Positions 1 to 26,774 are shown, counted from the stretch's first letter. The stretch: 37,027 nucleotides of DNA from an uncultured Candidatus Saccharibacteria bacterium (GCA_964357805.1 CAYHMS010000003.1:1-37027), one strand, 5' to 3'. Notes: generated from the sequence alone by a model not told the origin. A program made the numbers and translations.

Positions 1-95
1 GTGAGCGCCCCGCCGAAGAAACTCGTACCGCTGACATAACTCGTCCCGTGCACTGCGAAGCCCGCAGAGGGCGAAGTAGTGCCGATGCCGACGTT
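1..95. repeat. 95-bp exact repeat, copy 1 (starts at the window edge)
   Basis: Bases 1-95 (gtgagcgccccgccgaagaaactcg...gccgatgccgacgtt) are identical to 1786-1880. Both copies lie in the coding frame of the giant gene (GNVGIGTTSPSAGFAVHGTSYVSGTSFFGGAL). Confidence 0.9.
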
Positions 96-3000
96 CCCGC
101 TCGGGTTGATGTAGAGAGAGTTCGCGGAGGCCGCCTGATTCACCACCAGAGCGGCGTTGTTGCCCGCCGAGAAGCCGCCCGAGAAGGTACTCGTCGCCGT
201 TGTGCTTGTCGCGAGGAAATACGAGGCGCGGGCGTAGTCGCCGAAGTGCCCGATGCCTTCTACCGAGAGTTTGTAGGTCGGAGAGGTGGTCCCGATGCCG
301 ACGTTGCCGGTAGAGAGCGTGGTGTCCGTGCCGTCAAGTCCAGTAGCGAAAATCAAGTTACCAATGTTGAGCGTGTTCGCGCTATTCACGGCGGGAGTGT
401 CAATGTTGTAGCCGATGACGATGTTGTTACTGCCGGTGGTAAGTGTTTCCCCCGCGTAATTGCCCAGTAGTGTGTTGTTACCGCCGGAAGAAACAGCGGC
501 TCCAGCCCGATATCCTATTCCCAGATTATTAGAACCGGCATTCGCGTTAAGAGCGTAGGAGCCGATGCTGATACTGCTTGAAGGATTACTCTGCTGGTTT
601 GCTTGGTAGCCGATGGCGATATTATTACTGCCGGTAGTAAGGGCGAGAAGAGGACCGCCGCCGCCAACTGCGATATTGTTGGCGCCGGAGACATTGTTCT
701 GGAGGGCGAGGTAGCCAACCGCGAGATTGTCGTTGCCCGTGGTGTTGGAAAAGAGAGCTTTTGCGCCGAATGCGGCATTTTCGTTGCCAGTGGTGTTCGC
801 CTTTCCCGCATTCAGACCGACAAAAGTATTATTGAGCGTTGATGTACTTGCCCGCAATTCCAGCGACACATTGCCGAGCGGGTCGCGGAGCGTGATAATC
901 GGCGTGCTGGTGGCGGAGTTGGTTATGTCCAAGCGCGACGCGGGCGCCGTGTTCCCAATCCCGACGTTGCCGCTTGAATTCCAAATACCAGAACCGGGGA
1001 AATACGCGGTGTTTGAGACCGACAACTGCGTGGTGGAAGCGTTGCCGAGCGTGGAGAGGCCCGTAACATTCAGGGTTGAAGTGGCGGTAACCGCCCCGCC
1101 GACAAAGAGCGAACTGGAAATGTATCCCGTGCCGTGCACCGAGAGCAGTTGCGCCGGACTCGTCGTCCCGATGCCGACGTTGCCGTTCGATCTTATTCTC
1201 ATTTTTTCTCCACCTACTCCGGTAAAAATATAACCGTCATAACCTACCTCATCGCCATAGAAATACAAATATCCATCGGTTACATTCCTCCCAATATTAT
1301 AGCCTTGCGCGTTTGAACTATTTGCCAATCTGAAATTATAACCATCCCCAGCGACGCTTAATTTATATCCCGGACTCGTCGTCCCGATGCCGACGTTGCC
1401 TTGTATGATTAATCCATTTGACGGAGCCGCCGTCCCAGCGTACCCGATACCGACGCTCGCACCCCCCGCAAAGGCTGATTCACCCAACACACTTAACTTT
1501 GACACAGGACTCGTCGTCCCAATCCCGACGTTGCCTTGTATGATTAATCCGTTTGACGGAGCCGCCGTCCCCGCGTACCCGATACCAACGCTCGCTCCTC
1601 CCGCAAACGCTGATTCACCCAACACACTCAGTTTGCTCACCGGACTCGTCGTCCCGATGCCGACGTTGCCGCTACTATTCCATATCCCTGACCCCGGGAA
1701 ATACGCGGTGTTTGAGACCGACAACTGCGTGGTGGAAGCATTCGCCAGTGTAGTGAGACCCGTAACATTTAACGTTGACGTTGCCGTGAGCGCCCCGCCG
1801 AAGAAACTCGTACCGCTGACATAACTCGTCCCGTGCACTGCGAAGCCCGCAGAGGGCGAAGTAGTGCCGATGCCGACGTTGCCGGCAGATGTGATGTTAA
1901 AAAGGTAGCCGCCGCTGGAGGAGGCGATGCGGAAAATGTCGGCGGTTTGGCCGGCGACGGCTTTCAGGTCAAGCGTGGTGACTGACGTAGAAGCGGAGGC
2001 GTTTTCTATATAGAGCGGATGGTTGAACTCAAACCGCTCGCCGGCATTCCAGGTGAGGAGCGCGTTCGGCGATACGCTTCCGCGCTCAAAGGCGAGATAG
2101 GAGTTCTCGGTGTCGGCGGTGGCATTGTCCGAATTGATGGTGAACGTCTCCGCGACGAGATTGCCGCCGGTCAGGGTGCCCACGAGCGTGGTGGCGTTGA
2201 CTTCGTTGGCATAGATTTTGTCAAAGCGCACTCCTGCCGTGCCGATATCCACCGTGTCGTCCAAGGCCTGAATGTTCCCGATGATGGTATTGCTGCCGAT
2301 GCGGAGCGTTCCCGCCGACGCCGTGATGTCGTGATTGCCCGTGCCGGTGAAGGTGAGACCGGCGCCGGCGCCGGTCAGTACCGCGCCGGTGGTGCCGTCA
2401 AGCATGAAATTGCCGGATACCGCGAGGGCGCTTGAAGGCGAGGTGGTGCCGATGCCGACTAATCCTCCGTTCGTAACGATGAAATTCGTGGCGGTGGATG
2501 AACCGACGACGAAGGCGGGGCCGCTGATGCCGTTCGGGTTGACCGAAAGGAGTCCCCAGGGGCTGGTGGTCCCGAGCCCGAGGTTGCCGGAAGAATCAAT
2601 GCGCAGGCGCTCCGCGCCGCCGGTGGAGAGAGCGAGCGAGGAGGCGGCGGGCGACCAGAGGCCGGTCGTAAGGTCGCCCGCGAAGGTGTATGCGGGCGCC
2701 GCCGCGGCGCCGAGATTTGATGCGATGAAGTTGAGCGCGGTGGTCGTCGCAGTGGCGAGGATGGAGCCATCGGTCGTGTTCACCGCGCCGACGCCGAGCC
2801 CGCCGGTCAGGTATGCGGAGCCGTTTATGCTGAGCGTAGCCGAAGGCGAAGTCGAAGCGAGACCGACAAAGCCCGTGTTGCTTGATATGTACAAGAGTGG
2901 CGAGGAGGTGCCGACGGTGAGGAGACCGTCGCCGTAGGGCGTCGTGGTGCCGACCGAGAGGCGGCCCGCAAAGGTGCTGGTCGCGGTCGTGGAAGTGGCG

Positions 3001-4772
3001 GTGAAGTAGGGGGAGGAGATGGAGGTGCCGGCGGACACGACGGCGGGAGTGACGGTGCCCGAGACGGCGAGGTCGCCGGTAACGGTCGTCCCGCCGAGAG
3101 CCGTCGTGCCACCCGTGAGGTTAGTAAAGGTACCGGTTGTTGCAGACACCAAGATGCCGCTGGTAAGCGAGCCGCCACGAAAGTCGCCGTTGGTCACGAT
3201 GAGCTCGTTAAGCTTCTGTATCATATTGACTTGTTGGATGGTCGTTTGGTTGGTCACTACCTGACGGCTGACGGGCTGAAGCAGACCGGATACCGTTGCG
3301 AGGATGTCGGTGCGAAGTCCTGCGAGCGACTGATTCATAAAATCCTCGGAGATTCCTTTTACAATCGTGTTGTATGTGGGATACGAATTTACCGTTTGCT
3401 TTTGAGTGGAGGTCGCGATGGCGAGCGTAGGCTCAGGCGGGACGACACCGGGCAAAACGATGGTGGGCGCTGGAGCGAACAAGAACGCAAGTCCGCGATT
3501 CGCCGCGCTGAAGAAACTCTTAACCGTCTCGTAGGTGGCGAGCGCCACTTGTTGGCCGACTGTGAGTCCTTGAAGCACAGCGGCAACCTGATTGTTTGTT
3601 CGAAGTCGAACTTCAATTGAATTAAGTGCGAGAGCACCCTTGCCGAGTGCGCCGAGATACGCGTTTTGGACCGTGTCGGGCGCCGAAGCGATAAACAATC
3701 CCGCCGAATAAAAAACGTTTCGCGTTCCTTTTGCACTCTCATACGCGAGGCGGCCGGCAGCCGCAAGCGATGCGAGGTAGCCCTGCGACATGGTGTCGGT
3801 AAACGCTACGAAGCGGCGAGCCCCTGCATATTCTGCGTCGAAGACCGCGCCCGCGATACGCGGCGACATTTCTGCGACCCCGTAGGAAATCGCCACGTCA
3901 GCGCGTATCGCCGCGTGCGTCGCCTCAATGATTGCCGTGCCGAACGCGAGATTTGCTTGATTGACGAGGTGGGGTGTTTCTGCGAAGAGAAGCGGCAGCG
4001 AGGTGATGAACGCATACACATCACGTGCTGCCGTTTGTACATTTTTAAATGTAATCGGCGTGACCGAAAAAGAAATTGTTGATGGGAAAGAAGTAACACG
4101 AGGTTCGCGATGAGTACTAACAATCGCCAGGGGGAGTGGAGAGAAATCTAAGTCTGTAAGAAGCGATAACTTTGCTTCGCTAAAGTTACGCAGGGCAAGC
4201 GCGAGTGCACTCTTTGTTACAACGCGCGGAGCAATCTCATTCACTTCTATTCTCACGGCATCAATTCTCGATGCGATGCGTGACGGGATGCCGCCAAACG
4301 TATCAGAGAACCCGGAAGCGGCTTCGCGTACAATCACTGCCGCTTGATGTGCGAGCTGCGACACTGTCACTGCGCGCGCCGCGAATGCTCCGGAGACAAC
4401 CACCGCCGTCGCGAGTGAGAGCGCGAGAACCTGCCCCCATAACGGCCTATCGGACATAAGGGACATCTGCTGTCCAATACTTTTATGCAGCGTATGCAAG
4501 GGTGCATTAAGGACACGATGGAGCGGAAAACGATGTGCGCGATATTCAGCCTCGCGCGCACGCGCGAGCGCGCGCGCGTAATCGATCTTGCGACTCCCTT
4601 GCTCGTCGAGGAAGCGCGTCAACGACTCACTGTCGATAAGCCAACTGTGTCCGACCCTTCTGCCGATAATTTTTCCAGAACGCGCAAGGCGTGCAAGATA
4701 GTCCGAAGTGTAGCCGGATAGTTCTCCCGCATTTTTTGTCGTTATGAAATTTTTATCAAAGAGTGTATCCAT
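1..4772 (-). CDS. Giant membrane-anchored fibre/adhesin-like protein; 5' end complete, 3' end beyond the left edge (about 1590 codons in window)
   Basis: The minus frame opens at ATG 4772-4770 (MDTLFDKNFITTKNAGELSGYTSDYLARLARSGKIIGRRVGHSWLIDSESL...). It stayed open to position 3 in my hand translation. It is absent from the ORF track because it has no in-window stop, and no other ORF is listed in that minus frame across 4.7 kb. Domains: aa ~9-55 excisionase/MerR-type HTH; aa ~111-132 hydrophobic helix LWGQVLALSLATAVVVSGAFAA; an Ala-rich helical region; then at least 10 GNVGIGTTSP-x-KLSV units and NN(I/T)A(I/V)G head-like repeats. Confidence 0.8.
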   Translation of the reverse strand, partial: MDTLFDKNFITTKNAGELSGYTSDYLARLARSGKIIGRRVGHSWLIDSESLTRFLDEQGSRKIDYARALARAREAEYRAHRFPLHRVLNAPLHTLHKSIGQQMSLMSDRPLWGQVLALSLATAVVVSGAFAARAVTVSQLAHQAAVIVREAASGFSDTFGGIPSRIASRIDAVRIEVNEIAPRVVTKSALALALRNFSEAKLSLLTDLDFSPLPLAIVSTHREPRVTSFPSTISFSVTPITFKNVQTAARDVYAFITSLPLLFAETPHLVNQANLAFGTAIIEATHAAIRADVAISYGVAEMSPRIAGAVFDAEYAGARRFVAFTDTMSQGYLASLAAAGRLAYESAKGTRNVFYSAGLFIASAPDTVQNAYLGALGKGALALNSIEVRLRTNNQVAAVLQGLTVGQQVALATYETVKSFFSAANRGLAFLFAPAPTIVLPGVVPPEPTLAIATSTQKQTVNSYPTYNTIVKGISEDFMNQSLAGLRTDILATVSGLLQPVSRQVVTNQTTIQQVNMIQKLNELIVTNGDFRGGSLTSGILVSATTGTFTNLTGGTTALGGTTVTGDLAVSGTVTPAVVSAGTSISSPYFTATSTTATSTFAGRLSVGTTTPYGDGLLTVGTSSPLLYISSNTGFVGLASTSPSATLSINGSAYLTGGLGVGAVNTTDGSILATATTTALNFIASNLGAAAAPAYTFAGDLTTGLWSPAASSLALSTGGAERLRIDSSGNLGLGTTSPWGLLSVNPNGISGPAFVVGSSTATNFIVTNGGLVGIGTTSPSSALAVSGNFMLDGTTGAVLTGAGAGLTFTGTGNHDITASAGTLRIGSNTIIGNIQALDDTVDIGTAGVRFDKIYANEVNATTLVGTLTGGNLVAETFTINSDNATADTENSYLAFERGSVSPNALLTWNAGERFEFNHPLYIENASASTSVTTLDLKAVAGQTADIFRIASSSGGYLFNITSAGNVGIGTTSPSAGFAVHGTSYVSGTSFFGGALTATSTLNVTGLTTLANASTTQLSVSNTAYFPGSGIWNSSGNVGIGTTSPVSKLSVLGESAFAGGASVGIGYAGTAAPSNGLIIQGNVGIGTTSPVSKLSVLGESAFAGGASVGIGYAGTAAPSNGLIIQGNVGIGTTSPGYKLSVAGDGYNFRLANSSNAQGYNIGRNVTDGYLYFYGDEVGYDGYIFTGVGGEKMRIRSNGNVGIGTTSPAQLLSVHGTGYISSSLFVGGAVTATSTLNVTGLSTLGNASTTQLSVSNTAYFPGSGIWNSSGNVGIGNTAPASRLDITNSATSTPIITLRDPLGNVSLELRASTSTLNNTFVGLNAGKANTTGNENAAFGAKALFSNTTGNDNLAVGYLALQNNVSGANNIAVGGGGPLLALTTGSNNIAIGYQANQQSNPSSSISIGSYALNANAGSNNLGIGYRAGAAVSSGGNNTLLGNYAGETLTTGSNNIVIGYNIDTPAVNSANTLNIGNLIFATGLDGTDTTLSTGNVGIGTTSPTYKLSVEGIGHFGDYARASYFLATSTTATSTFSGGFSAGNNAALVVNQAASANSLYINPSGNVGIGTTSPSAGFAVHGTSYVSGTSFFGGAL
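1372..1641 (-). repeat. 2 x 135-bp tandem repeat inside the giant gene (45-aa unit)
   Basis: Units start with ggactcgtcgtccc at 1372 and 1507, and the next boundary is at 1642. The copies differ at roughly 15 nt, yet both translate to VSKLSVLGESAFAGGASVGIGYAGTAAPSNGLIIQGNVGIGTTSP. Confidence 0.9.
1786..1880. repeat. 95-bp exact repeat, copy 2
   Basis: Identical to 1-95. Identity ends at 96/1881 (c versus g). Confidence 0.9.
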
Positions 4773-5212
4773 GTCGGATATCCGAATTAACTAAATCATA
4801 CCTTATGTTTCCGGCGACCGGTGAGAAAAAATAATGGAGCGTGTGGATAAGATTTGGAAATTTTTGGCGAATATCCGGCTAAAAATTCGCCCTATACTAA
4901 TTTTTGCGCGTAGAGCCGCCTATACTCATGGGAATAACGCCTCGTATGGCCTCTCGCTGGCGTAAAAAGGACCCTCGCGGAGTCCAGTCGGAGACCTGAA
5001 GAACAATTCTGAAAAATAAAGCTGTAGAAATTCGTTTTTATCCGCCCACATCGCTTCACAAAGAAATTGTTTGGTCGTTTGCATACTAATTCAGACGCTA
5101 ATACTGATGCTGAAGTTTCTAAAATGCACCGTACCTGTTAGCTATATCGGATATGCGAAGTAAAAATATATCCTGAACACTGCGAAGCAATTTGGAACGT
5201 ATTTTTATACAC

Positions 5213-5245
5213 TTTTCGCACAATATTGAACACATTGTGCGAAAA
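5213..5245. repeat. Perfect 12-bp-stem inverted repeat in the non-coding gap (function unknown)
   Basis: ttttcgcacaat (5213-5224), a 9-nt loop, then attgtgcgaaaa (5234-5245). No clean U-tract follows on either strand. Confidence 0.6.
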
Positions 5246-5399
5246 TATGCGTTTAAAATCGCCTTTCCAAGCCGACGCTAAACATGCTCATGCCGTTTTA
5301 CGGCAAATAAGTCCCGAAGCGGCGTTTTTGGCAATTTAAATTCTTATCTGGATATATGTGTAAACTCGCCTATACAAGACGAGAAAATAGGTAAATAAG

Positions 5400-6080
5400 C
5401 TATTTATTATAGAATACAACTCCAGCTAATATACTTACTTGTCTATTCGAGAGTATATAGGTATCAAAATAACCGCTACCAAGAACTGCTGTAGTGGCTA
5501 AAATTACTGCAACAAGAGCTCCTGCAAGCTGCACCATTGGCATCACTATTGATTTCTTCCCTTTCCGTTCTTCCTGCTGTCGTATAGGTTCTTTTCTCGG
5601 TAGAAGCTCCTCTGGGGGGGCCTGATATATCGCCTTATATACCGTGCGAATGGGTATATTCACTTCTTTTTCGGGCTCTGGGACCGTGATTGGAGTTATT
5701 ATCGGTTCAATATCTCCAACACGGTCGAACCACGCGCGCCAAGAATCCTGTAAATGCTGTGAGAATTCTGACTCTTTTTCCTTGTCATCTTCCTCTCGCA
5801 ATCGATTTATCGAAGGAAGAAATTCATCTTTAGACGCCTCATAACGCGGCGCCTCCCACGTTGGTCTTTTTTCATTTTCTGTCGGTGGGGCATCCATTAC
5901 ATCGCCAAAGCGATGGTCTTTGATAGCCGATTCAAGCACATACCAACTACGCCCGACAAGACGCGCCGGCACTCGACCCTCCCGGCATAGCTGACCAATA
6001 TAATCCTTGGCGTATCCCGTTATTTTCGCGGCTCGCTTCGACGATACGTATTTCTTTTCCTCTATGAGAATCTCGTCCAT
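5400..6080 (-). CDS. Small excisionase/MerR-like HTH protein with a C-terminal TM anchor
   Basis: Track ORF 5400..6140. I prefer the ATG at 6080 (MDEILIEEKKYVSSKRAAKITGYAKDYIGQLCREGRVPARLVGRSWYVLESAI), because the longer form starts at TTG and overlaps the gatB stop. An acidic linker is followed by the hydrophobic helix VQLAGALVAVILATTAVLGSGYF near the C-terminus. Confidence 0.7.
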   Translation of the reverse strand: MDEILIEEKKYVSSKRAAKITGYAKDYIGQLCREGRVPARLVGRSWYVLESAIKDHRFGDVMDAPPTENEKRPTWEAPRYEASKDEFLPSINRLREEDDKEKESEFSQHLQDSWRAWFDRVGDIEPIITPITVPEPEKEVNIPIRTVYKAIYQAPPEELLPRKEPIRQQEERKGKKSIVMPMVQLAGALVAVILATTAVLGSGYFDTYILSNRQVSILAGVVFYNK

Positions 6081-6132
6081 ACTCGTAGTATAAGCATATC
6101 TCGGCTCGTAGGGAAGGGCTGTGCATAACCAC

Positions 6133-7560
6133 CTAATCAAGCTTCTCGATAAGCAATTTTTTGAAACTTTCTGGGTTCCCCGCCCCGCGGCTCTCCTTCA
6201 TCGCCTTCCCGATAAGGTACTGGAGTGCCGCCTGTTTGCCGCTCTTGTACTCCCCAACCGCCTTCGCCTCTGCAGCGATAACTTTATCCACCGCTTCCCC
6301 GAGCGCCGTGACATCGTGGACCTGTATGAGGCCTTGCTCCTTCGCTATGACGTCTGGGTCTCCGCCCTTTTCAACCATAATGAGCAAAGTGTCTTTTGCA
6401 CCGCGCGATGACAGATTGTGCGCGGCAAACATCCGTATAAGTTTTGCAAATGAAGCCGGTGTGGCATTCCCAGATTCTCCCGCGAGATCAGATATAAAAT
6501 AATTCGCCGCAAGCACGACAGGCTCATGTCCGCCATCAAGTTCTTTTACCACAGCATCAAAAAATACTCCGCGCGCGACGGAAGCAATGATACATTCAAC
6601 ATCCTCCGCCTTAAGACCGAATTTTGTATATCGCGCGCGCCGCTCCCACGGGAGTTCTGGCAAGGACGTGCGTATTGCTTCCGGCGAAAATTCAGAAATC
6701 TCTGAAAGGAACAGTTTCGGAAGGTCCGGCTCCGGGAAGTAGCGATAGTCGGCGCTCCCTTCTTTGAATCGCTGATGGAAGGTTTCCTGCTTCGCTTCGT
6801 CCCAACCGCGCGTCTCCTGCACCACCCTCTCTCCTGCTTTGATAAGCGCAGTTTGACGTTCTATTTCATAGGTAATCGCCCGTTCCACGGAACGGAATGA
6901 ATTTAAGTTTTTCACTTCGACTTTTGTTCCCAACAACGAAACAAGGTTCGACCTTGAGGATTCGGATTTAAGGTCGGACCTTGTTTCGCGCGCAACGCTC
7001 ACGTTTGCCTCTATCCGCATTTCCCCTTTCTCTAGATTCGCTTCGCCGGCACCAAGCGTACGCACAAGGAGCTGTAATTCGCGCGCAAAGCGTCCTGCGG
7101 TTTCTGCATCCTGTATCACCGGTTCGGTGACGAGCTCCATAAGCGGGATGCCGGCACGATTAAAATCCACCAATGACTTGTTTTGAGAATGTATCGAGCG
7201 GGCTGTATCCTCTTCAAGGTGCACGCGGGTGATGTCTACTCCCGCGAGTTTCCCGCCGGTAACCAGCGGATGAATATATTGGCTGATTTGATACCCCTTC
7301 GGAATATCCGGATAGAAATAACTCTTGCGGTCGAACTCGCTAAAGTCGGCGAGCGTCCCGCCCACGGCCGTACCGAGACGAAGAACATGACGTACCGCCT
7401 CCCGATTGATGACCGGCAGAGTCCCGGGATGCGCCATACAGACAGGACAGATATTTACATTTGGGCGCGTTTCATCTGGGTCGTTTTTTGAGTCGCAAAA
7501 CATCTTGGTTCGCGTCTTCAGCTCGGCATGTATTTCCAGCCCTATAGTGGGACGATACAT
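6133..7560 (-). CDS. gatB: Asp/Glu-tRNA(Asn/Gln) amidotransferase subunit B
   Basis: MYRPTIGLEIHAELKTRTKMFC...NICPVCMAHPGTLPV...VEVKNLNSFRSVERAI. Full-length GatB architecture with a C-terminal YqeY-like tail. Confidence 0.95.
   Translation of the reverse strand: MYRPTIGLEIHAELKTRTKMFCDSKNDPDETRPNVNICPVCMAHPGTLPVINREAVRHVLRLGTAVGGTLADFSEFDRKSYFYPDIPKGYQISQYIHPLVTGGKLAGVDITRVHLEEDTARSIHSQNKSLVDFNRAGIPLMELVTEPVIQDAETAGRFARELQLLVRTLGAGEANLEKGEMRIEANVSVARETRSDLKSESSRSNLVSLLGTKVEVKNLNSFRSVERAITYEIERQTALIKAGERVVQETRGWDEAKQETFHQRFKEGSADYRYFPEPDLPKLFLSEISEFSPEAIRTSLPELPWERRARYTKFGLKAEDVECIIASVARGVFFDAVVKELDGGHEPVVLAANYFISDLAGESGNATPASFAKLIRMFAAHNLSSRGAKDTLLIMVEKGGDPDVIAKEQGLIQVHDVTALGEAVDKVIAAEAKAVGEYKSGKQAALQYLIGKAMKESRGAGNPESFKKLLIEKLD
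6937..6988. repeat. 19-bp-stem inverted repeat (one mismatch) embedded in frame in gatB
   Basis: cgaaacaaggttcgacctt (6937-6955), a 14-nt loop, then aaggtcggaccttgtttcg (6970-6988). It encodes RETRSDLKSESSRSNLVS, within a loop that looks longer than in the GatB sequences I recall. Confidence 0.85.
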
Positions 7561-7561
7561 A

Positions 7562-8530
7562 TTAAGAGAGTATCACGGAGAGCGCACCGGCAAATATTTT
7601 GAGCGACACTTTGTCTTTTACCGATACCGGAAGCACTTCCCTGCCGGTCTCCCGAGCAAGGAGCTGTTTCTTCGTTTCGCACTCCAGCGCCGAGACGAGG
7701 TCCGTTTTAGACAGGACGACGAGCTCCTTCTTACTCGCTAGACCGTGTCCGAACGCCTCTAGTTCTCTCCTCACTTCCCCGTATGCCTTGAGGGGGTCGT
7801 CTTGGTCAGCCGAGACGAGATGCAGAAGGATTCCGGTGCGTTCAACATGCTTGAGGAATTTTATGCCGAGGCCCTTCCCAGCCGAAGCGCCTTCAATAAG
7901 GCCCGGTATGTCGGCGAGAATGCGCCCGTAGAAATCACCGAGATTCGGTTCCAGTGTCGTGAACGGATAATCGCCGACTTTTGACTTGGCCCGTGTTAGA
8001 GCGTTCAGGAGGGAGGACTTGCCCGCGTTCGGCAAGCCGATAAGCCCGGCGTCCGCAATGAGCTTGAGCGTGAGTTCGAGCTCCCCACCCTTCCCCTCTT
8101 TGCCCTGCGTTTGCTGGAAGGGATTCTGGTTCGTCGAACTCTTAAAACGAGCATTGCCTAATCCGCCTTTACCGCCGCGGAATAAGACGATGTGTTCATC
8201 CTCCTTCGTGAGCTCATACTCTTCTCCGGTTTCGACAACGCGCACAAACGTGCCGATGGGCACTTCTAAAATAACCGGGGCACCATTCTTGCCGTGTTTC
8301 AATTCACTTTTCCCCGCCTCGCCGTTCTCCGCATGAAATTTTTTCTCATAGCGATAGTGGGCGAGCGCAGCCAAGTCCCGGACGCCGACCAGAATGACAT
8401 CGCCGCCTCTGCCGCCGTCGCCGCCGGAGGGCCCGCCGCGCGCGGACTCCTTGGTGCGCAGCCAGCGGATGACGCCGTCGCCGCCCTTCCCCGACTTCGC
8501 ATGTATACTCGCCTCATCAACAAATGCCAT
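7562..8530 (-). CDS. obg: Obg/CgtA-family GTPase
   Basis: MAFVDEASIHAKSGKGGDGVIRWLRTKESARGGPSGGDGGRGGDV (glycine-rich Obg fold). G-domain motifs GLPNAGKSSLL and DIPGLIEGAS. Confidence 0.95.
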   Translation of the reverse strand: MAFVDEASIHAKSGKGGDGVIRWLRTKESARGGPSGGDGGRGGDVILVGVRDLAALAHYRYEKKFHAENGEAGKSELKHGKNGAPVILEVPIGTFVRVVETGEEYELTKEDEHIVLFRGGKGGLGNARFKSSTNQNPFQQTQGKEGKGGELELTLKLIADAGLIGLPNAGKSSLLNALTRAKSKVGDYPFTTLEPNLGDFYGRILADIPGLIEGASAGKGLGIKFLKHVERTGILLHLVSADQDDPLKAYGEVRRELEAFGHGLASKKELVVLSKTDLVSALECETKKQLLARETGREVLPVSVKDKVSLKIFAGALSVILS

Positions 8531-8672
8531 ACCACCACCCTAGCACAGGTGGAAATCCGAAGCACGAAGCACGAAATTCGAAATAAATTAAAAATAAGAG
8601 GATGGCTGCGCGGTACGAAGTTGGAAGATTAGAGTTCAACTTTCCGCATGGTAGAACTCAATGTATTGATTG

Positions 8673-8695
8673 TGATGGACACGTCGTGTCCATCA
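8673..8695. repeat. 23-bp perfect palindrome (left hairpin of the element)
   Basis: tgatggacacg-t-cgtgtccatca. It ends 2 nt from the transposase stop codon. Confidence 0.9.
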
Positions 8696-8696
8696 A

Positions 8697-9392
8697 TTAA
8701 TCAAACTCTGATTCAAGTTGCTCGAGTCGGTATAACATCGACTCTCGTGCGAATTTTTTGAAAGATTCTGGCGTTTCGAACAACTCTCCGAGCAAATCCT
8801 TTGTGATGATTGGCGACACTTGAGTACCTGCGTATGCTCCTAAACTACTGAATGGATCGCCTGCTATTCGTTCATACGCGTCGTCAAAGTTCTCAATCGC
8901 ACGTTGCACCCCGCCCGGGTAGAGCTCGAAAGGATTTTTTACCATTATGTATATTGCGAGGTTACGAAAATCAGTGTCCTCTTCAACTAAACGTGATTTA
9001 AATGGTCTCTGGAACAAAGAGCCATTTTCTCCATATTTCTCATTGATGAATTTAGAATAGGCCATACTCACGCGATGCATAAACCTGCTCGTACCGCCCT
9101 CGACAATCTCCTTAATCATAAGGTGCAGATGGTTTGGCATAATGCTGAAGGCAAGAATTGAAACAATTGGTTGTCGCTCTCCCCACGCATCAGGCCACTG
9201 AAAGTGCGCTAGATGCCCTGACATTTCAAGTTCACGTTTCCAATTGTCCGGCATTCGGTCGTTATGATTGAAATAATAAAAATTAAGAAGCAGTCGTCGC
9301 AAATCTCCTTTTTGCCGAAAGATAGGCAATTTCTTCACGCCACGAGTATATACATGGGCATATGAGTCGATACCGATAGGTTCACGAGCCAT
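8697..9392 (-). CDS. HUH/Y1 tyrosine transposase (IS200-like / REP-associated RayT-like)
   Basis: HUH motif in SIMPNHLHLMIKE and a catalytic-Tyr region in LAIYIMVKNPFE. I prefer the ATG at 9392 (MAREPIGIDSYAHVYTRG), because the longer track ORF (to 9431) would translate through the right hairpin. Confidence 0.75.
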   Translation of the reverse strand: MAREPIGIDSYAHVYTRGVKKLPIFRQKGDLRRLLLNFYYFNHNDRMPDNWKRELEMSGHLAHFQWPDAWGERQPIVSILAFSIMPNHLHLMIKEIVEGGTSRFMHRVSMAYSKFINEKYGENGSLFQRPFKSRLVEEDTDFRNLAIYIMVKNPFELYPGGVQRAIENFDDAYERIAGDPFSSLGAYAGTQVSPIITKDLLGELFETPESFKKFARESMLYRLEQLESEFD

Positions 9393-9415
9393 TATCAATT
9401 CAGAATAAATTGACC

Positions 9416-9454
9416 GACACGACGTGTCCATCAGAAGCGTGTGGACAACGCTTC
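9416..9454. repeat. Right-end hairpins of the element
   Basis: 13-bp palindrome gacacg-a-cgtgtc (9416-9428) followed by ccatca. A second hairpin follows: gaagcgt, a 7-nt loop, acgcttc (9434-9454). Confidence 0.85.
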
Positions 9455-9465
9455 AAATTTCGTGC

Positions 9466-11973
9466 TTATTGTTCTACGATCTCCCACCCTTCGGCGAGGA
9501 ACGGTTCGGCTTTTTTAAATTTGAGGGTTTTTGTCTCGTTGCCCTTCTTGATGGTGACAAAATCGTTGCGGCCGTGTCCGGCGGGCTTCACGAGCGGCGC
9601 TTGAACGCCTCCTTCTTCCTTCCCTGCAGCGATGAGCGCGGCGCGCGTCCTCTCTTCTTCAGCGCGAATACGCGCAGCATCGGCAGATTGGATACGCGGC
9701 AACGCTTCTGCCACTGCCGCTCTAATATTCTCTTCAAGCTGCCGAAAGCGCTGGAGCCCCTCGCGCCGGTACTCAATAAGGGGGTCTCGCTGACCGTATG
9801 CGCGAAGCGATACCGAGCGGCGCAGATAATCCATAGTCTCAAGATGCTCAAGCCAGAACGTATCAATAACCTGCAAGAGCAGACGACGGAGATGTTCTAC
9901 AAAGGTCGTACCGAGCTCACTCTTCTTCGCTTCGAGCGCTTCGGAGGAGCCTATGAGCGCACGAATGAGTTCTTCCATTTCTGCATCGCTCCCCAAAAGC
10001 GCGGCACGGCGGCGCGCATAGATGGCGAGACGCTGCGTATTCATCACATCGTCGTAGGCGAGTACTTGTTTGCGCGAGTCAAAGTTGAATCCTTCAATGC
10101 GGCCCTGGGCGGTCTCAAGCGAGCGCGTTATCATCGCACTTTCAATTGGCTCGTCTTCGGGGATGCCGAAACGTCCCATCACCTTCTTCAGAGTTTCAGA
10201 AGCAAAGACACGCATCAGCTTGTCTTCCAGCGAGACATAGAAGCGCGTCTCACCGGGGTCGCCCTGGCGGCCCGAACGGCCGCGCAGCTGGTTGTCGATG
10301 CGGCGCGCGTCGTGCCGCTCCGTGCCGACGACCATAAGACCGCCATTCGCGATGACTGCAGAGCGCATCTCCGGAGTCGCGAGCGCGCCGCCGAGCTTGA
10401 TGTCAACACCGCGACCTGCGAGATTTGTCGCGACCGTCACGCGCCCCGCCGAACCGGCGTTCGCGATAATCTCGCCTTCGCGTTCGTGATTCTTCGCATT
10501 CAATACTTCGTGCGGCACGCCTTCGCCCGATAGATACTCGCTGACCGTTTCGTTGTCTTCAATAGAGACCGTTCCCACAAGAACCGGTTGTCCCTTTATA
10601 TGACGCTCTTTCACCGCGCGGGCGACCGCGCGGTACTTCCCCGCACTCGTCTGGAAGATGAGGTCGTCATAATCCTTGCGCGCCGTCGGCCTATTGGTCG
10701 GCACTGCCACGACCTCAAGTCCGTAGACGGTGTAGAACTCCTCCTCGGAGGAGAGCGCGGTGCCCGTCATACCGGCGAGCCGCTTGTACATACGAAAGAG
10801 ATTTTGAAAGGTCACCGTCGCATAGGTGCGCGTCTCCGCCTGGACTTTCACGCCCTCCTTTGCCTCAACGGCCTGATGCAATCCTTCCGACCAGCGACGT
10901 CCGGGCTGAAGCCTTCCCGTGAATTCGTCCACAATAATGACTTCATTGTCTTTCACTACGTACTCTTTATCCTTCTGGAAGAGCGCCTTCGCGCGCACCG
11001 CCGTCTCAAGATGATGCGCGTACTTCACACCGCCCTCGGTATAGAGATTTTCAAGACCGAGCGCCGTTTCGGCCTTCTTCATGCCCTCTTCAGTGAGCTG
11101 GATGGCCTTCTGCTTTTCGTCAACAGTGTAATCCTCCCCTTCTTTCAGAGCGTTAACGATTCCGGCGAAACGCTCATAGAACATGTGCGAATCACCCGTG
11201 GGCCCGCTGATGATGAGCGGCGTGCGCGCTTCATCAATAAGGATGGAATCAACCTCGTCGATGATTGCGTAGTGATAGTGGCGCTGTACAATCTGTGATG
11301 CGTCGTAGGCGGTGTTGTCGCGCAGGTAGTCAAACCCGAGCTCGTTGTTGGTGACGTAGGTTATGTCCGCGGCATAGGCTTCTTTCTTTTCAACGGGACG
11401 CAGATAGTCATAGAACACTTTAAAAGAACCCTTGGCGTCGTGCTCGGCATCTTCTTCTTGCGAAACGTGCGACGAATCGTAACGATATGCGCCCGTACTG
11501 GTAACAACGCCGATGGTGAGCCCGCAATAGTCATAGACCTCTCCCATCCACGCGCCGTCGCGACGCGCGAGATAGTCATTCACCGTAACGACCTGCACCC
11601 CTTTGCCCGCGAGCGCGTGGAAGATTGCCGGAAGTGTTGCGACGAGCGTCTTCCCTTCGCCGGTACGCATCTCGGCAATCTTACCGCGAAGCAATGCAAG
11701 ACCGCCCAGTAGTTGCACATCAAAATGAGGTTGGCGGAGTGTGCGGCGAGCTGCCTCGCGCACGAGCGCAAAGACGAGCGGGAGGTCATTCTCGTTCGTC
11801 GCGCCCGCCGCCTCGGCGCGGGCGCGTATCTCCCCGAATCGCGCACATATCTCCTCGTCAGAAAGGCTTTTCAGCTCCTCTTGAAGCGCGTTCGCGGCCG
11901 TAACGACCGGCGCCGCGGCCTTCAAGAAGGCCGCGGATTGGTTCTTTGAGAAAAAATGGGAAAGCCCGAGCAT
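9466..11973 (-). CDS. secA: Preprotein translocase ATPase SecA
   Basis: The 849-aa track ORF carries SecA motifs (MRTGEGKTLVATLP, DEVDSILIDEARTPLIISG, TNLAGRGVDIKLGG). The start is probably ATG 11973 (MLGLSHFFSK) or 11979. The track's GTG start at 12015 lies inside a terminator hairpin. Confidence 0.95.
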   Translation of the reverse strand: MLGLSHFFSKNQSAAFLKAAAPVVTAANALQEELKSLSDEEICARFGEIRARAEAAGATNENDLPLVFALVREAARRTLRQPHFDVQLLGGLALLRGKIAEMRTGEGKTLVATLPAIFHALAGKGVQVVTVNDYLARRDGAWMGEVYDYCGLTIGVVTSTGAYRYDSSHVSQEEDAEHDAKGSFKVFYDYLRPVEKKEAYAADITYVTNNELGFDYLRDNTAYDASQIVQRHYHYAIIDEVDSILIDEARTPLIISGPTGDSHMFYERFAGIVNALKEGEDYTVDEKQKAIQLTEEGMKKAETALGLENLYTEGGVKYAHHLETAVRAKALFQKDKEYVVKDNEVIIVDEFTGRLQPGRRWSEGLHQAVEAKEGVKVQAETRTYATVTFQNLFRMYKRLAGMTGTALSSEEEFYTVYGLEVVAVPTNRPTARKDYDDLIFQTSAGKYRAVARAVKERHIKGQPVLVGTVSIEDNETVSEYLSGEGVPHEVLNAKNHEREGEIIANAGSAGRVTVATNLAGRGVDIKLGGALATPEMRSAVIANGGLMVVGTERHDARRIDNQLRGRSGRQGDPGETRFYVSLEDKLMRVFASETLKKVMGRFGIPEDEPIESAMITRSLETAQGRIEGFNFDSRKQVLAYDDVMNTQRLAIYARRRAALLGSDAEMEELIRALIGSSEALEAKKSELGTTFVEHLRRLLLQVIDTFWLEHLETMDYLRRSVSLRAYGQRDPLIEYRREGLQRFRQLEENIRAAVAEALPRIQSADAARIRAEEERTRAALIAAGKEEGGVQAPLVKPAGHGRNDFVTIKKGNETKTLKFKKAEPFLAEGWEIVEQ

Positions 11974-11987
11974 TGACATATAGTATA

Positions 11988-12028
11988 CCAAAAATAGAAA
12001 AATCCCTCCATTCACGAAGGGATTTTTC
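11988..12028 (-). terminator. Rho-independent terminator (minus strand)
   Basis: 11-bp perfect stem: gaaaaatccct (11997-12007) and agggatttttc (12018-12028), with a 10-nt loop. On the minus strand it is followed by TATTTTTG. Confidence 0.75.
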
Positions 12029-12039
12029 TTGGTACGAAA

Positions 12040-12096
12040 CTATGCGCGCTTCTTTGCTGCTTTGCGCTTCTTCGCGGCCTTACGCTTTTTTGCCAT
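12040..12096 (-). CDS. Candidate 18-aa polybasic micro-protein (MAKKRKAAKKRKAAKKRA)
   Basis: ATG at 12096 and TAG at 12042-12040. It lies between murB and secA and is followed within about 12 nt by the terminator. No clear Shine-Dalgarno sequence. Too short for the ORF track. Confidence 0.35.
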   Translation of the reverse strand: MAKKRKAAKKRKAAKKRA

Positions 12097-12234
12097 GGTG
12101 GTTGCGAATTATGGGTGAGGGTTGATATGTCGACCCGTCCGTCCTTCAACATTGTTCAGGACAAACGTTTCTACATGACAGTATGACGCGTTAAAAACTT
12201 TTTGTGTGAGAAAAAATTACGATGTGTGGATAAC

Positions 12235-13263
12235 TTATGAAAAAAAGATTTCACCGAATGTTTCCACCTCGCGTTCAATCGTGATGCCAGTCGCTCTCCG
12301 AACACGCTCGGTGACTTCGCGCGCAAGCGCGTCGACTTCTGCGGCGCGCGCGCCTGCGCGCGTGACAATAATGAGCGGTTGCTCTTCATACAGTCGCACG
12401 CGGCCTTTTGTAAATCCCTTGAGTGACAGAACATGGTCGAAGAGCCATGCGAGCGGAATTTTTACCGAACCATCCTCCTGCGAAAAGGTCGGAAGCCCCG
12501 GGAAACGCCTCTCGAGCGAATCTGCAAGCTCGCGCGAAATGATTGAATTCTTGAAAAACGAGCCGGCGGTGCCTTCTTCTGGCGCGTGAGGAAACTTTTT
12601 GGCGCGGATGGCGCGGATGGCGCGAGCGATGTCGGCCGGCGTCGAGAGCGGCTCTCCGGCGGCGTGCATACGGGCTACGTCGGCGTAGGCGATGTTTGGT
12701 ATCGCATTTTTTGCAAAACGCAACGCAACTTTCGTGATGATGAGTTCGCGATGTTTTTTAAAAAAACTTGTCCGATAGGCGAACGCGGCTTCGGCGCGAG
12801 TGATGCGTCGGCGCACACCAAGCGTACTATCGATACTATCGGCATACTCAAATACAGTAGAAAATTCCGCGCCGTAGGCGCCGATGTTCTGCACCGCCGC
12901 GCCGCCAATCGTGCCCGGAATACCCGCGAGGTTTTCGATACCGAAGATGCCGCGTCTCCCCACTTCGTCAACAACGTCGTCCCAGAGCGCGCCTGCCCCC
13001 GCGATGAGCACTATGCTTCCGTCGGCATTATGATATACACTATCGCGCATCGCGATTTTCAACACTACACCTTCGATACCTGTATCCGGCACAAGCACGT
13101 TGCTCCCTTTACCTAACGCGAACAAGGGGAGGTTCTGCGTCCGTGCGAGTGCTATCGCGTCTTCTATGTCTGCCTCGGTATGCGCTTCAACAAAAAAACG
13201 CGCCGTCCCACCCACGCCGAGCGTTGTGAGGGGCGCGAGCGGGACGTGTTCTTCCAGCTTCAT
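12235..13263 (-). CDS. murB: UDP-N-acetylenolpyruvoylglucosamine reductase
   Basis: MKLEEHVPLAPLTTLGVGGTARFF...GKGSNVLV...GAGALWDDVV. The ATG at 13263 overlaps the upstream TGA (ATGA). The track's longer N-terminus runs into the upstream gene. Confidence 0.9.
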   Translation of the reverse strand: MKLEEHVPLAPLTTLGVGGTARFFVEAHTEADIEDAIALARTQNLPLFALGKGSNVLVPDTGIEGVVLKIAMRDSVYHNADGSIVLIAGAGALWDDVVDEVGRRGIFGIENLAGIPGTIGGAAVQNIGAYGAEFSTVFEYADSIDSTLGVRRRITRAEAAFAYRTSFFKKHRELIITKVALRFAKNAIPNIAYADVARMHAAGEPLSTPADIARAIRAIRAKKFPHAPEEGTAGSFFKNSIISRELADSLERRFPGLPTFSQEDGSVKIPLAWLFDHVLSLKGFTKGRVRLYEEQPLIIVTRAGARAAEVDALAREVTERVRRATGITIEREVETFGEIFFS

Positions 13264-15425: not shown

Positions 15426-15441
15426 AGTGCGGATAACTATA

Positions 15442-17208: not shown

Positions 17209-17993
17209 ATATCGAGAATATTCCGAATGAGGGATGACACCATCTGGTTGGCGACAACGTAATGAACTGAGTGAGTGAGAGGGTCAGCGACAGTGTAGAC
17301 GACATCGGCACCTGCGAGCCGGGCGAGCACAAGACCGGCGGCAATATCCCACCATTTGGTATGCCGACCAAAACATCCCCCGAGACGTCCTTCTGCAACA
17401 TACGTGAGGTTGAGAGAGGCGGATCCGGTTCGCAAGCATCCCATCGTCGCATCGTTTATCTTTTGAAATGCATTGAATTCAGCGTCTCTGTCCGGATGAT
17501 TCGCGCCAGAAAAAGTGCCGGCGCATAACACTTGCCCTGCCGGGAGATTCAAACTAGCGATACGAGTATGATTCTTGTAGACACCGAGACCGTCTCCACC
17601 GTAATACAATTCGTTCTGAAATGGGTTATAGACAACGCCGACTACCGGTTTACCTTCATCTACGTACGCAATTGACACCGCACAGAATGGAATTCTACTC
17701 ACGTAATTAACAGTGCCGTCAAGCGGATCAACTATCCAGTATGTTCCGGTCGCTAAATCAACCTTGCGCGACATACCGGACTCCTCCGCAACCACTGGAA
17801 TATCGCTTGAGGCATTGAGTATATTGATTATTTTTTGTTCGGCATACGTATCAACCTCGGTAGCGATATCTCTAAAAGATTCCTTACGATGTACCACAGA
17901 ACGTCCCGTTTCATCTACATATGACTGAAGGATTCCTCCCGCCGCAACTGCTGCAGAAAGAGCTAATTTCAATTGCGGTTGATACGAAGTCAT
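17205..17993 (-). CDS. Inositol-monophosphatase-family sugar-phosphate phosphatase
   Basis: VVAEESG, WIVDPLDGTVNY, WDIAAGLVLARLAGA. An ATGA overlap with the ABC gene was checked in the sequence. Confidence 0.85.
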   Translation of the reverse strand: MTSYQPQLKLALSAAVAAGGILQSYVDETGRSVVHRKESFRDIATEVDTYAEQKIINILNASSDIPVVAEESGMSRKVDLATGTYWIVDPLDGTVNYVSRIPFCAVSIAYVDEGKPVVGVVYNPFQNELYYGGDGLGVYKNHTRIASLNLPAGQVLCAGTFSGANHPDRDAEFNAFQKINDATMGCLRTGSASLNLTYVAEGRLGGCFGRHTKWWDIAAGLVLARLAGADVVYTVADPLTHSVHYVVANQMVSSLIRNILDI

Positions 17994-20331: not shown

Positions 20332-20332
20332 G

Positions 20333-22296: not shown

Positions 22297-22309
22297 AGAT
22301 GGTTCGATG

Positions 22310-22918: not shown

Positions 22919-23043
22919 ATCAATAGTATACAAAGAAAAAGGGCCCGAGGTTTTCCTCGAGCCCGCGTTCTGTATCGTCTTGATGTCGTTCGTTATCCAC
23001 CAAATCACAATCATGTTTGTCCAGCTACTCTACAAAATGCACT

Positions 23044-23081
23044 TGTATCTATTTTTGTCCTATAGGATATAATTTGATACA
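23044..23081. promoter_or_regulatory. 38-bp nested palindrome (operator copy 1) overlapping the promoter and start codon of the PaaX-like gene
   Basis: TGTATC (23044-49), N8, TCCTATAGGA (23058-67), N8, GATACA (23076-81). TATAAT lies at 23068-73, only 7 nt before the ATG at 23081 (suggesting a leaderless mRNA). A TTGTAT -35-like hexamer lies at 23043-48. Confidence 0.6.
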
Positions 23082-23671: not shown

Positions 23672-23672
23672 A

Positions 23673-23710: not shown

Positions 23711-23736
23711 TTGCAATGAACAAACCCCGTAGTGGA

Positions 23737-25424: not shown

Positions 25425-25431
25425 ATTATTA

Positions 25432-26772: not shown

Positions 26773-26774
26773 AG

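Follow-up and report, generated by a model that had tools for sequence, protein, structure and literature searches.

A stretch of 37,027 nucleotides from an uncultured Candidatus Saccharibacteria bacterium (GCA_964357805.1 CAYHMS010000003.1:1-37027, numbered from its first letter and referred to here, at its full length, as the window) opens inside a reading frame that poses an unusual question: what is the function, and to what kind of genetic entity does it belong, of a protein that begins with a helix-turn-helix (HTH) domain of DNA-binding type, crosses the membrane through a single transmembrane (TM) helix, and then continues as a fibre of more than 1,400 residues? The question is of particular interest in the Patescibacteria (the Candidate Phyla Radiation, or CPR), which account for a large share of bacterial diversity, and whose studied members live attached to other cells. 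The analysis described below leads us to regard it as reasonably probable that the encoded product represents the first 1,590 residues of a giant, membrane-anchored surface fibre of a Patescibacteria (CPR) bacterium, furnished with an HTH domain on its cytoplasmic side.

The first-pass annotation of the window had claimed a giant gene on the minus strand whose stop codon falls outside the window, and which had escaped the open reading frame (ORF) track for that reason. Translation of the minus frame from position 4772 to position 3 gave 1,590 codons with zero stops, a run that would occur in random sequence with a probability of approximately 1e-33, and the recovery of complete orthologues (described below) further substantiated the claim; the frame is indeed missing from the ORF listing, which omits any ORF running off the source. 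The position of the start is defined by an in-frame TAG located six codons 5' of ATG 4772, which is the first ATG to follow it, and by the resulting N-terminal sequence, MD(T/P)LF(D/E)KN, which is aligned with the start of every homologue. Many ORFs of 100-200 residues are listed on other frames of positions 1-4772, where they overlap the giant gene, and are regarded as by-products of its G+C-rich, repetitive Gly/Ala/Ser/Thr coding.

A survey of other genomes for the same succession of HTH domain, TM helix and fibre, as the first-pass annotation had suggested, found that this architecture is conserved across Patescibacteria. When the N-terminal 557 residues were used as a query, 28 homologues were recovered at 32-46% identity (with E-values down to 1.6e-124), all 28 of them fragments and most of them flagged 'partial'; those with a named source derive from Patescibacteria or unclassified-bacterium metagenome-assembled genomes (MAGs), except for one fragment labelled Burkholderiales. 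A scan of one genome per species produced 107 relatives, with record names that include Paceibacterota, Kaiserbacteria, Minisyncoccia and Nomurabacteria, and from these a set of 80 loci was kept, all of them from Patescibacteria-type MAGs except for two small Anaerolineae proteins consisting of the HTH only. The giant gene runs off its contig in 31 of 39 loci; it is complete in six, where it encodes 2,175-3,928 residues, and three more orthologues exceed 3,970 residues while still open, lengths of more than 4,000 residues also being reached. The complete orthologues carry a C-terminal chaperone domain, either Peptidase_S74 (1e-8 to 3e-22, with the SDxxxK-type motifs SDERLK or SDARLK) or Peptidase_G2, followed by a conserved beta-rich domain and then by one or two Bact_surface_Ig-like domains. 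The Peptidase_S74 domain that had been predicted for the missing C-terminus is therefore present in complete orthologues, with the corresponding part of the window's own protein lying outside the window.

The architecture of these C-termini merits separate description. In the last 450 residues of five orthologues (L002, L013, L017, L032 and L042), the S74 or G2 domain is not terminal, and is succeeded by a coiled-coil-like stretch, by the beta-rich domain (…WYISDKQNGSF…FDYFLVQTEG) and by the one or two Ig-like domains; if S74 cleaves itself in these orthologues, approximately 400 residues would be either released or retained non-covalently, unlike the situation in classic tail spikes. At another locus (L004:10001-18097), an orthologue of 2,699 residues ends directly after S74 in an intein-splicing-like (Hint) segment, and an ORF located 2.8 kb downstream (extending to 21989) starts with what appears to be the other intein half, which suggests that an intein or mobile insertion splits the 3' end of that fibre gene.

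The abrupt end of the window's contig has a likely explanation of its own. The terminal 112 nucleotides are nearly identical to a second segment of the giant gene (Table 1), and the contig therefore ends inside one of the gene's repeats, which is likely to be the reason that it ends at position 1; an exact 43-nt search of metagenome contigs for its continuation past the left edge returned no match. Further along the gene, a tandem duplication encodes an exact 55-residue repeat at aa 1035 and aa 1080. Because the giant gene breaks assemblies, leaving its homologues as fragments or running off contigs, it is nearly invisible in annotations. NCBIfam contains no family for it or for its small paralogue (see below), and no account of an HTH_17-TM-fibre protein, or of this locus in Patescibacteria, emerged from full-text searches of the literature.

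The assignment of the N-terminal domain to the excisionase/MerR type of HTH, also put forward by the first-pass annotation, was upheld by sequence profiles and by structure prediction. Pfam HTH_17 (PF12728) matches aa 10-58 with 17.7 bits in the whole protein and 23.8 bits when aa 1-85 are searched, both below the family's gathering cut-off of 27 bits; of the 22 family members in the alignment, 21 are recognised by the profile (best E-value 1.5e-9), the scores of relatives reach 50.9-64.3 bits, and precomputed database annotation gives PF12728 for many homologues. AlphaFold2 (AF2), supplied with an alignment of 22 sequences, predicted a strand (aa 9-11), two helices (12-19 and 23-32), two further strands (37-40 and 43-47) and a long C-terminal helix (48-80), with a predicted local distance difference test score (pLDDT) of 85-92 across aa 11-60, corresponding to a beta-alpha-alpha-beta-beta-alpha fold in which the helix-turn-helix is followed by a two-stranded wing. 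The high-probability structural matches to this model (0.8-0.99 by Foldseek) are to Xis, TraN, RacA, BldC and MerR-family proteins, the best neighbour being a mycobacteriophage Xis (probability 0.99, TMt 0.70), with RacA bound to DNA at 0.92; the accompanying Foldseek E-values are weak (0.1-0.4), in keeping with a domain of only about 50 residues. In addition, a sequence profile finds AM32/TraN, a DNA-binding protein of a type IV secretion system, at 2.4e-4. The basic residues of the recognition helix and wing are conserved among family members, and the HTH core is 68% identical across species in the giant protein (and 84% in the small paralogue), with the remainder of each protein at 40-50%. 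Judged from its fold and from the conserved DNA upstream of the gene (see below), the cytoplasmic domain most likely binds DNA.

That a single TM helix should follow, with the N-terminus inside, was likewise supported by the results. The segment listed in Table 1 is the sole Kyte-Doolittle peak above 1.6 within the first 420 residues, and an equivalent helix is found at aa 103-138 in 39 of 39 homologues. In the same homologues, the N-terminal segment has an average net charge of +6.2, and Lys and Arg average 2.1 in the 20 residues preceding the helix versus 0.95 in the 20-residue stretch just after it; AF2 places a juxtamembrane helix at aa 48-84. The giant protein has no N-terminal signal peptide, and this feature, together with the charge asymmetry, favours a type-II orientation with the HTH inside and the remainder of the protein outside; we infer that the TM helix serves as a type-II signal-anchor.

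At its outer end, the helix carries a conserved G-A-x-x-A-(R/Q/N/H)-A motif in 32 of 39 homologues, which could either serve in GxxxA-type packing or be recognised as an A-x-A site by signal peptidase. The latter possibility gives rise to a different view of the protein, in which the helix is a cleavable internal export signal, cut after A-x-A at aa 132-134 to free the fibre, which would then be secreted or retained by some other component, and to leave a 134-residue stub that, whether kept in the membrane or liberated by intramembrane proteolysis, would act as a regulator reporting the amount of fibre exported. The motif, when extended to G-A-x-x-A-(R/Q/N/H)-(A/T/S), has Ala at -3 in 31 cases and a small residue at -1 in 32 of 32, the small paralogue resembles such a stub (HTH, linker, TM helix and a tail of 25 residues), and the conserved DNA upstream of the gene is operator-like. 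However, the hydrophobic stretch of about 22 residues is typical of an anchor rather than of a cleaved signal, the motif can also be read as GxxxA helix packing in an Ala-rich region, and no protease gene was seen in the window; moreover, we know of no precedent for a folded domain of 110 residues ahead of a cleavable signal peptide. Cleavage is considered quite improbable.

Under the signal-anchor topology, the ectodomain begins with an Ala-rich module (17% Ala over aa 135-470) that was predicted to be helical at low confidence (pLDDT <50 in AF2) and that has no relative in the Protein Data Bank (PDB) by profile search; the module is specific to this HTH-TM-fibre family. It leads through a neck, the most conserved block of the ectodomain in the alignment (aa 463-534), into a shaft that is rich in Ser, Thr, Gly and Ala (25% Ser plus Thr) and contains no Cys. 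Ten G[NL][VL]G[IL]G(T/N)T(S/A)P units were counted across aa 729-1559, in agreement with the first-pass annotation, which had reported at least ten units of GNVGIGTTSP type and had described the ectodomain as tail-fibre-like. The latter description was strengthened by matches of the shaft to PHROG tail-fibre profiles (1.7e-22 and 2.5e-17), to annotated tail fibres of Synechococcus, Pelagibacter and Roseobacter phages (1e-6 to 1e-11) and to a single PDB sequence, that of Bd2133 from Bdellovibrio bacteriovorus (8OND, 3e-9).

One element of the first-pass description, that of 'YadA-head-like' repeats, did not survive. Only about four to six NNxAxG-type units are present, over aa 1314-1479, and within them aa 1343-1456 match the tail-spike profile phrog_4636 (5e-9), and the stretch also matches podophage tail fibres, with 37-41% identity to those of Pelagibacter and Roseobacter phages. 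The Pfam profiles YadA_head and YadA_anchor gave no match to the window's protein at E<=1, and none at E<=0.01 to the C-termini of four complete orthologues. A trimeric autotransporter adhesin of the YadA type was rejected on those grounds, with neither head nor anchor present by Pfam profile.

Given the resemblance of the shaft to viral proteins, whether the gene is cellular becomes a central point. A prophage remnant, in which the gene would encode a phage or tailocin tail fibre rather than part of a cellular organelle, would account for the matches of the shaft to PHROG tail-fibre and tail-spike profiles and to GenBank phage tail fibres, for the S74 chaperones that are typical of phage fibres, and for the IS200-like gene nearby. 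Against such an origin, the housekeeping genes that flank it on either side are the same in about 40 species. The order Wzy_C/TPR, murB, secA, obg, gatB, small HTH gene, gap and giant gene is present in 27-40 of 42 core loci, and genes for glyceraldehyde-3-phosphate dehydrogenase (GAPDH) and the pentose-phosphate pathway lie downstream where that side is visible. Furthermore, no phage gene was detected by Pfam-level annotation in the 37-kb window, a search of 2.9 million viral contigs recovered no relative of the N-terminal module, and a cytoplasmic N-terminal domain with a TM anchor is incompatible with a virion fibre. The prophage reading was rejected on the basis of this synteny, of the lack of phage genes and of the lack of viral relatives, and we consider it very improbable; the giant gene is a conserved chromosomal gene of Patescibacteria (in Paceibacteria/Kaiserbacteria-like MAGs), and not a prophage gene. 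The neighbouring proteins are mostly 72-83% identical to those of the window (59-66% for MurB), whereas the N-terminal part of the giant protein is only about 40% identical between species and the small HTH protein about 50%; such rapid divergence of the giant gene is as expected for a surface protein involved in host interaction.

The gene directly upstream of the giant gene, on the same strand, is in about 50 loci a small paralogue that repeats the cytoplasmic and membrane portions of its larger relative. Its product comprises an HTH (aa 9-55), an acidic and Pro-rich linker that contains the conserved motifs TWExPRYEA and LQDSWxAWFDR, a TM helix (aa 179-201) and a conserved tail of 25 residues outside. 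Its recognition helix and wing are at least 90% conserved. The coordinates of both genes, of their parts and of the elements between them are collected in Table 1.

Table 1. Features of the window around the giant gene, with positions counted from the first nucleotide of the window.
Feature	Position	Strand	Remarks
Giant gene, 5' part only	1..4772	minus	1,590 codons from ATG 4772; stop past left edge
Left-edge repeat copy	1..112	minus	94% identical to 1786-1897 (repeat family D2)
Fibre shaft	3..3101	minus	aa 558-1590; repeat units, PHROG and PDB matches
NNxAxG-type repeat stretch	336..833	minus	aa 1314-1479; tail-spike/tail-fibre-like
Tandem duplication of 135 nt	1354..1623	minus	repeat family D4; 89% nt identity
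Conserved 'neck', SYPTYNT...VNMIQKLNELIVTNGDFRGG	3171..3386	minus	aa 463-534; leads into fibre
Ala-rich membrane-proximal ectodomain	3363..4370	minus	aa 135-470; conserved across 17 sequences
Single transmembrane helix	4371..4442	minus	aa 111-134; sole Kyte-Doolittle peak
Basic juxtamembrane region with conserved helix RKIDYARALARAREAEYRAH	4443..4598	minus	aa 59-110; conserved columns
Winged HTH, MerR/excisionase (HTH_17) type	4599..4748	minus	aa 9-58; Pfam, AF2, Foldseek
Non-coding gap between the two HTH-TM genes	4773..5399	minus	627 nt
Palindromic 14-mer TTCGGATATCCGAC	4773..4786	minus	abuts ATG
-10-like hexamer TATGAT	4795..4800	minus	22 nt before ATG; conserved, TATTAT in most species
TTATCCACA box, DnaA-box consensus	4842..4850	minus	78 nt before ATG
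Terminator-like hairpin, then T-run	4969..4985	minus	inside gap
Third, weak 14-mer copy	4987-5000	minus	inside gap
Second, degenerate 14-mer copy TTCGCATATCCGAT	5146..5159	minus	mid-gap; conserved flank ATA-GCT-AAC-AGG-TAC
Small HTH-TM paralogue, 226 aa	5400..6080	minus	HTH_17 4e-5; start at ATG aligned with orthologues
Conserved neighbours gatB, obg, (IS200-like insertion), secA, murB, Wzy_C+TPR	6133..15425	minus	Pfam

The DNA immediately upstream of the giant gene bears on the role of the HTH. The final 80 or so nucleotides of the gap are near-invariant as DNA, though the proteins are only about 40% identical. In 48 of 49 loci, a single copy of TTATCCACA or TTATCCCCA is located between -68 and -86 relative to the ATG, and nearly all of these boxes lie at -68/-69 or at -76 to -81, spacing classes that differ by about one helical turn. 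The more general form T[TG][AG]TCC[AC]CA was found no more than 120 nt upstream of 64 of 159 HTH-TM genes (40%) versus 6 of 493 neighbours (1.2%), an enrichment with an odds ratio of 55 (p = 2.5e-37); the upstream box is specific to the HTH-TM gene family. In addition, 45 of 49 loci have a palindromic 14-mer (TTCGGnTATCCGAC, allowing up to 2 mismatches) directly against the ATG, and 2 more have it somewhat further upstream. The 14-mer has 6 matches in the window versus 1.05 expected, and extra degenerate copies number 12 in the 49 gaps versus 0.33 expected.

Within the window, exact boxes of the TTATCCACA type occur on the minus strand at 4842-4850 (ahead of the giant gene) and at 12225-12233 (in the murB-secA spacer), and boxes with one mismatch, also on the minus strand, at 6120-6128 (small HTH gene), 9440-9448 (IS200-like gene) and 15428-15436 (Wzy_C gene). 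Such boxes could be true DnaA sites or, alternatively, sites for the HTH proteins. A replication origin in the gap was also considered, and was rejected: each gap contains one DnaA-type box at a fixed position, and the flanking genes are co-directional.

The hexamer TATGAT that lies between the box and the 14-mer is taken as a putative promoter -10 element, although a sigma-70 scan of positions 4650-6250 identified no convincing promoter, and no full promoter at the hexamer. Genes in the window lack a Shine-Dalgarno sequence, and many have a TATACT/TATAAT-like hexamer that ends about 7 nt before the ATG (as at 6081-6093 and 7561-7576), a pattern seen upstream of most genes of the window and in loci L043-L080, from which it would seem that these organisms often produce leaderless mRNAs. 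An exception is the giant gene, whose leader, about 15-20 nt long, is conserved. An RNA hairpin in this leader was tried as a further candidate; RNAalifold returned only three base pairs at -0.88 kcal/mol, and RNA structure therefore does not explain the conservation of the leader. The covariation in the hairpin amounted to one compensatory case (in L016) and several uncompensated changes.

The gap itself is unusually long for such compact genomes, measuring 427-999 nt (mostly 500-760) in the 49 loci. A 12-bp perfect hairpin (TTTTCGCACAAT...ATTGTGCGAAAA) at about 5215-5248 recurs in other species, as does, in several of them, a mid-gap block at 5131-5159 that consists of the 14-mer-like site and ATAGCTAACAGGTAC. 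Rfam gave no match at gathering scores across the window and none at E<=1 across the gap; neither a tRNA nor a tmRNA was found in the gap, and no conserved small ORF apart from its nucleotide-conserved 3' end. In two loci (L043 and L051), an HTH-TM gene of approximately 600 aa occupies the place of the gap. A non-coding RNA of a new kind, a long leader under regulation and what is left of a third HTH-TM gene are all conceivable explanations of the gap.

Taken together with the protein architecture, these observations allow a working mechanism to be proposed. The shaft would trimerise into a beta-helical fibre, with a length, scaled from the model of the Bdellovibrio fibre Bd3182, of at least 60 nm for the portion seen here and of up to about 200 nm in the longest orthologues, and would display variable tips with which the cell attaches to a host or partner, in the way suggested by the MAT fibres of Bdellovibrio and by the episymbiotic life of studied Patescibacteria. 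One or both of the membrane-tethered HTH domains would bind the TTATCCACA box and/or the 14-mer in the giant gene's own upstream region, and such binding would either set the expression of the fibre gene or keep the locus at the membrane as the giant protein undergoes co-translational insertion. The small paralogue is the stronger candidate for DNA binding because its recognition helix and wing, like the DNA sites, are nearly invariant. Of the two roles offered by the first-pass annotation, a ToxR-like membrane-tethered sensor or an HTH fold re-used as a cytoplasmic anchor, the conserved, gene-family-specific upstream DNA favours a DNA-related one, the position of the sites close to the promoter being suggestive, and we place the prospect that the giant and/or the small HTH binds its own upstream sites, for expression control or locus tethering, at just under even.

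The HTH and TM module extends well beyond this locus. A profile of the HTH and juxtamembrane helix, searched against 1.84 billion cluster representatives, matched 10,590 clusters at E<=1e-3 and 3,525 at E<=1e-10, including proteins of 7,214, 5,533 and 4,883 residues as well as many two-HTH proteins of 300-400 residues. Nearly all of the top matches of sufficient length have a hydrophobic segment after the HTH domain or domains, mostly the only such segment found, and a Pfam search of nine other HTH-TM proteins identified no known outside domains. Two tandem HTH domains precede the TM helix in P0014, P0031, P0035 and P0108, and at loci L043, L048, L051, L059 and L076; the 7,214-residue member, with 47 GNVGIG units, is among the tandem-HTH proteins, and a large set of 300-400-residue proteins consists of two HTH domains, a TM helix and a short tail. 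The solved DNA-binding protein TraN/AM32 likewise has two such domains.

The breadth of this family also underlies an alternative that we consider unlikely, in which the HTH has been re-used as a dock for the fibre base, and for thousands of other surface proteins of Patescibacteria, on a common cytoplasmic partner (cytoskeletal, divisome or export) and the box is bound by another regulator. Over 10,000 protein clusters, diverse in their ectodomains, have the module with a single TM helix, two or three paralogues may stand side by side (as in L043 and L051), a GYxxDYxxxLxRxG surface is identical in all of them at a position where paralogous transcription factors normally diverge, and RodZ, with its HTH docked onto MreB, offers a precedent. 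Yet the high-probability structural neighbours (0.8-0.99) are all DNA-binding proteins of the Xis/MerR type, the conserved residues on the recognition helix and wing are basic, the upstream box is specific to the gene family, and some members carry tandem double HTHs as does the DNA binder TraN/AM32.

Several considerations nevertheless weigh against the picture of a fibre whose HTH base reads its own upstream DNA. DNA binding is deduced from fold and from upstream conservation; the GYxxDYxxxLxRxG surface, common to thousands of paralogues, fits a shared protein partner, in the manner of RodZ and MreB; and the box equals the DnaA-box consensus, such that DnaA or another factor could be its binder. 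The box statistics were derived from loci chosen via the HTH gene, with crude gene calls. On the side of the fibre, the G-A-x-x-A-x-A sequence at the TM end fits the signal-peptidase A-x-A rule, making cleavage from an HTH-TM stub conceivable; AF2 was confident for the HTH only, with pLDDT <50 for the ectodomain in a monomer prediction of aa 1-557; and the window ends before the C-terminus, with the S74 chaperone and tip domain known from orthologues only.

If the proposal of self-directed DNA binding is extended to the entire family, a broader and distinctly more doubtful hypothesis emerges, in which a large class of membrane-wired MerR/Xis-type HTH domains, mounted on surface structures that include host-attachment fibres of up to 7,000 residues, would read the TTATCCACA operator and the 14-bp palindrome through the HTH of the fibre or of its small paralogue, either relaying attachment, export or cleavage of the fibre to transcription or tethering the locus to the envelope. 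If true, this would amount to 'adhesin-to-gene' signalling within one polypeptide, comparable to Notch or ToxR, in organisms with very few conventional regulators.

Other genes of the window bear on how the fibre might be modified. The protein with Wzy_C and TPR domains (13260-15425, minus strand, 721 aa) is O-antigen-ligase-like, highly conserved (69-76% identity in other species) and, in 28 core loci, syntenic. As an outer membrane is presumably absent from these bacteria, its activity may be that of a protein O-oligosaccharyltransferase instead of an O-antigen ligase. The occurrence of Wzy_C domains in O-oligosaccharyltransferases, together with the Ser and Thr content of the shaft, makes glycosylation of the fibre by neighbouring machinery plausible as judged from gene content. 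The glycan island that the first-pass annotation had put forward as a possible source of sugars for the fibre, a set of nonulosonic-acid genes (of pseudaminic or legionaminic type) at about 17990-36994, is set apart from the giant gene by about 8.5 kb of housekeeping genes. It encodes two NeuB proteins, two PseB-like dehydratases, two DegT aminotransferases, a CMP-sugar synthetase and a NeuC-like epimerase, as well as acetyl- and methyltransferases, a Glyphos_transf protein and an ATP-grasp/LAL ligase; its otherwise all-minus orientation is broken by a PaaX_M-like gene on the plus strand (23081-23671).

Two details of the conserved block itself were also noted. An IS200-like Y1 transposase gene (Y1_Tnp, 7.6e-7) lies at 8697-9431 on the minus strand, between obg and secA; homologues are present in only 3 core loci (at 79% identity in one and 27-38% in the others), in another position, and the gene is a mobile element that has recently entered a block conserved in other respects. 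The listed murB ORF (12235-13398) overlaps the Wzy_C gene by 139 nt, and its MurB Pfam match begins at residue 68, so that the true murB start is probably located further downstream.

The wider significance of the locus lies in the biology of its hosts. By analogy with fibres of known function, a role of the giant fibre as a host-attachment device is plausible, and the locus thus offers a concrete host-recognition candidate for Paceibacteria-type lineages: a fast-evolving fibre that may reach the length of a cell, that is kin to the prey-recognition fibres of Bdellovibrio, and that occupies the same place on the chromosome in about 50 species. The fusion to an HTH, the adjacent paralogue and the DnaA-box-like element raise the question of whether the status of the fibre is coupled to expression or to chromosome position, a question that extends to the role of more than 10,000 related HTH-TM proteins. 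Should the HTH prove to be only an anchor, the module would still define a family and a sequence signature with which CPR surface proteomes can be mined.

Comparison with systems that have already been characterized helps to define which parts of this protein are familiar. The closest relatives of the shaft are the MAT fibres of Bdellovibrio, which are displayed on the surface of the predator (one of them binding prey glycans), are typically about 1,000 residues long, and possess a cleaved signal peptide and a conserved, beta-rich N-terminal domain of about 130 residues whose mode of anchoring is unknown; one such fibre, Bd3182, has 922 residues and was modelled at approximately 550 Å, and in the S74 subgroup, as in phage spikes, the S74 domain acts as a trimerisation chaperone (PMC10769870). 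The giant protein shares with the MAT Bd2133 the shaft repeat xSGN(V/L)G(I/L)GTxxPxxKL(x)V, its orthologues share with the S74-subgroup MATs an S74 domain with the SDxxxK motif, and both are cellular, non-viral fibres, Bdellovibrio also being an organism that lives on other cells. In contrast to the MATs, the base here consists of a cytoplasmic HTH, a TM helix and a helical module of about 330 residues, the proteins are 2-7 times longer, and the S74 domain of the orthologues is trailed by approximately 400 residues (a beta-domain and one or two Ig-like domains) instead of ending the protein. With such an N-terminus, the giant protein is therefore not a strict member of the MAT family, the shaft alone being homologous. 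Much the same can be said of phage tail fibres and spikes (with S74, for example of the K1F endosialidase type, or with G2), which have in common with it the shaft profile homology and the chaperone of full-length orthologues, and from which it differs as a syntenic chromosomal gene with a cytoplasmic N-domain, a membrane anchor and an N-module absent from viral contigs.

The base of the fibre finds its nearest parallels elsewhere. ToxR, TcpP, CadC and VtrA, with their partners ToxS and VtrC, have a cytoplasmic N-terminal winged helix, one TM helix and an extracytoplasmic C-terminal part (PMC9214523). That layout, with a DNA-binding-type domain at the cytoplasmic N-terminus, is found in the giant protein, which also resembles these regulators in having a second bitopic protein encoded next door and conserved, putative DNA sites at its own promoter. 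It departs from them in that its HTH is of MerR/Xis (HTH_17) rather than OmpR type, in that a fibre of more than 1,400 residues replaces a small sensor domain, and in that its neighbour is a paralogous HTH-TM protein rather than a ToxS-like lipocalin. RodZ, in which a cytoplasmic Xre-type HTH that binds MreB is followed by a TM helix and a periplasmic domain (DUF4115), has a matching bitopic arrangement, its HTH fold likewise facing the cytoplasm, and is the precedent for an HTH that acts as a protein-docking anchor; its hallmarks (HTH_25 and DUF4115) gave no Pfam matches in either the giant or the small protein. RacA of Bacillus subtilis, which binds a 14-bp palindrome through a MerR-like winged HTH and ties the chromosome to the cell pole and envelope, is alike in the fold of the HTH only, and, unlike the giant protein, is soluble, reaches the membrane via DivIVA, and has neither a TM helix nor an ectodomain. 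On balance, the shaft is rated as being of the ordinary tail-fibre/MAT kind, and what is rated as new is the placement of an S74-type adhesive fibre on a membrane-tethered HTH base.

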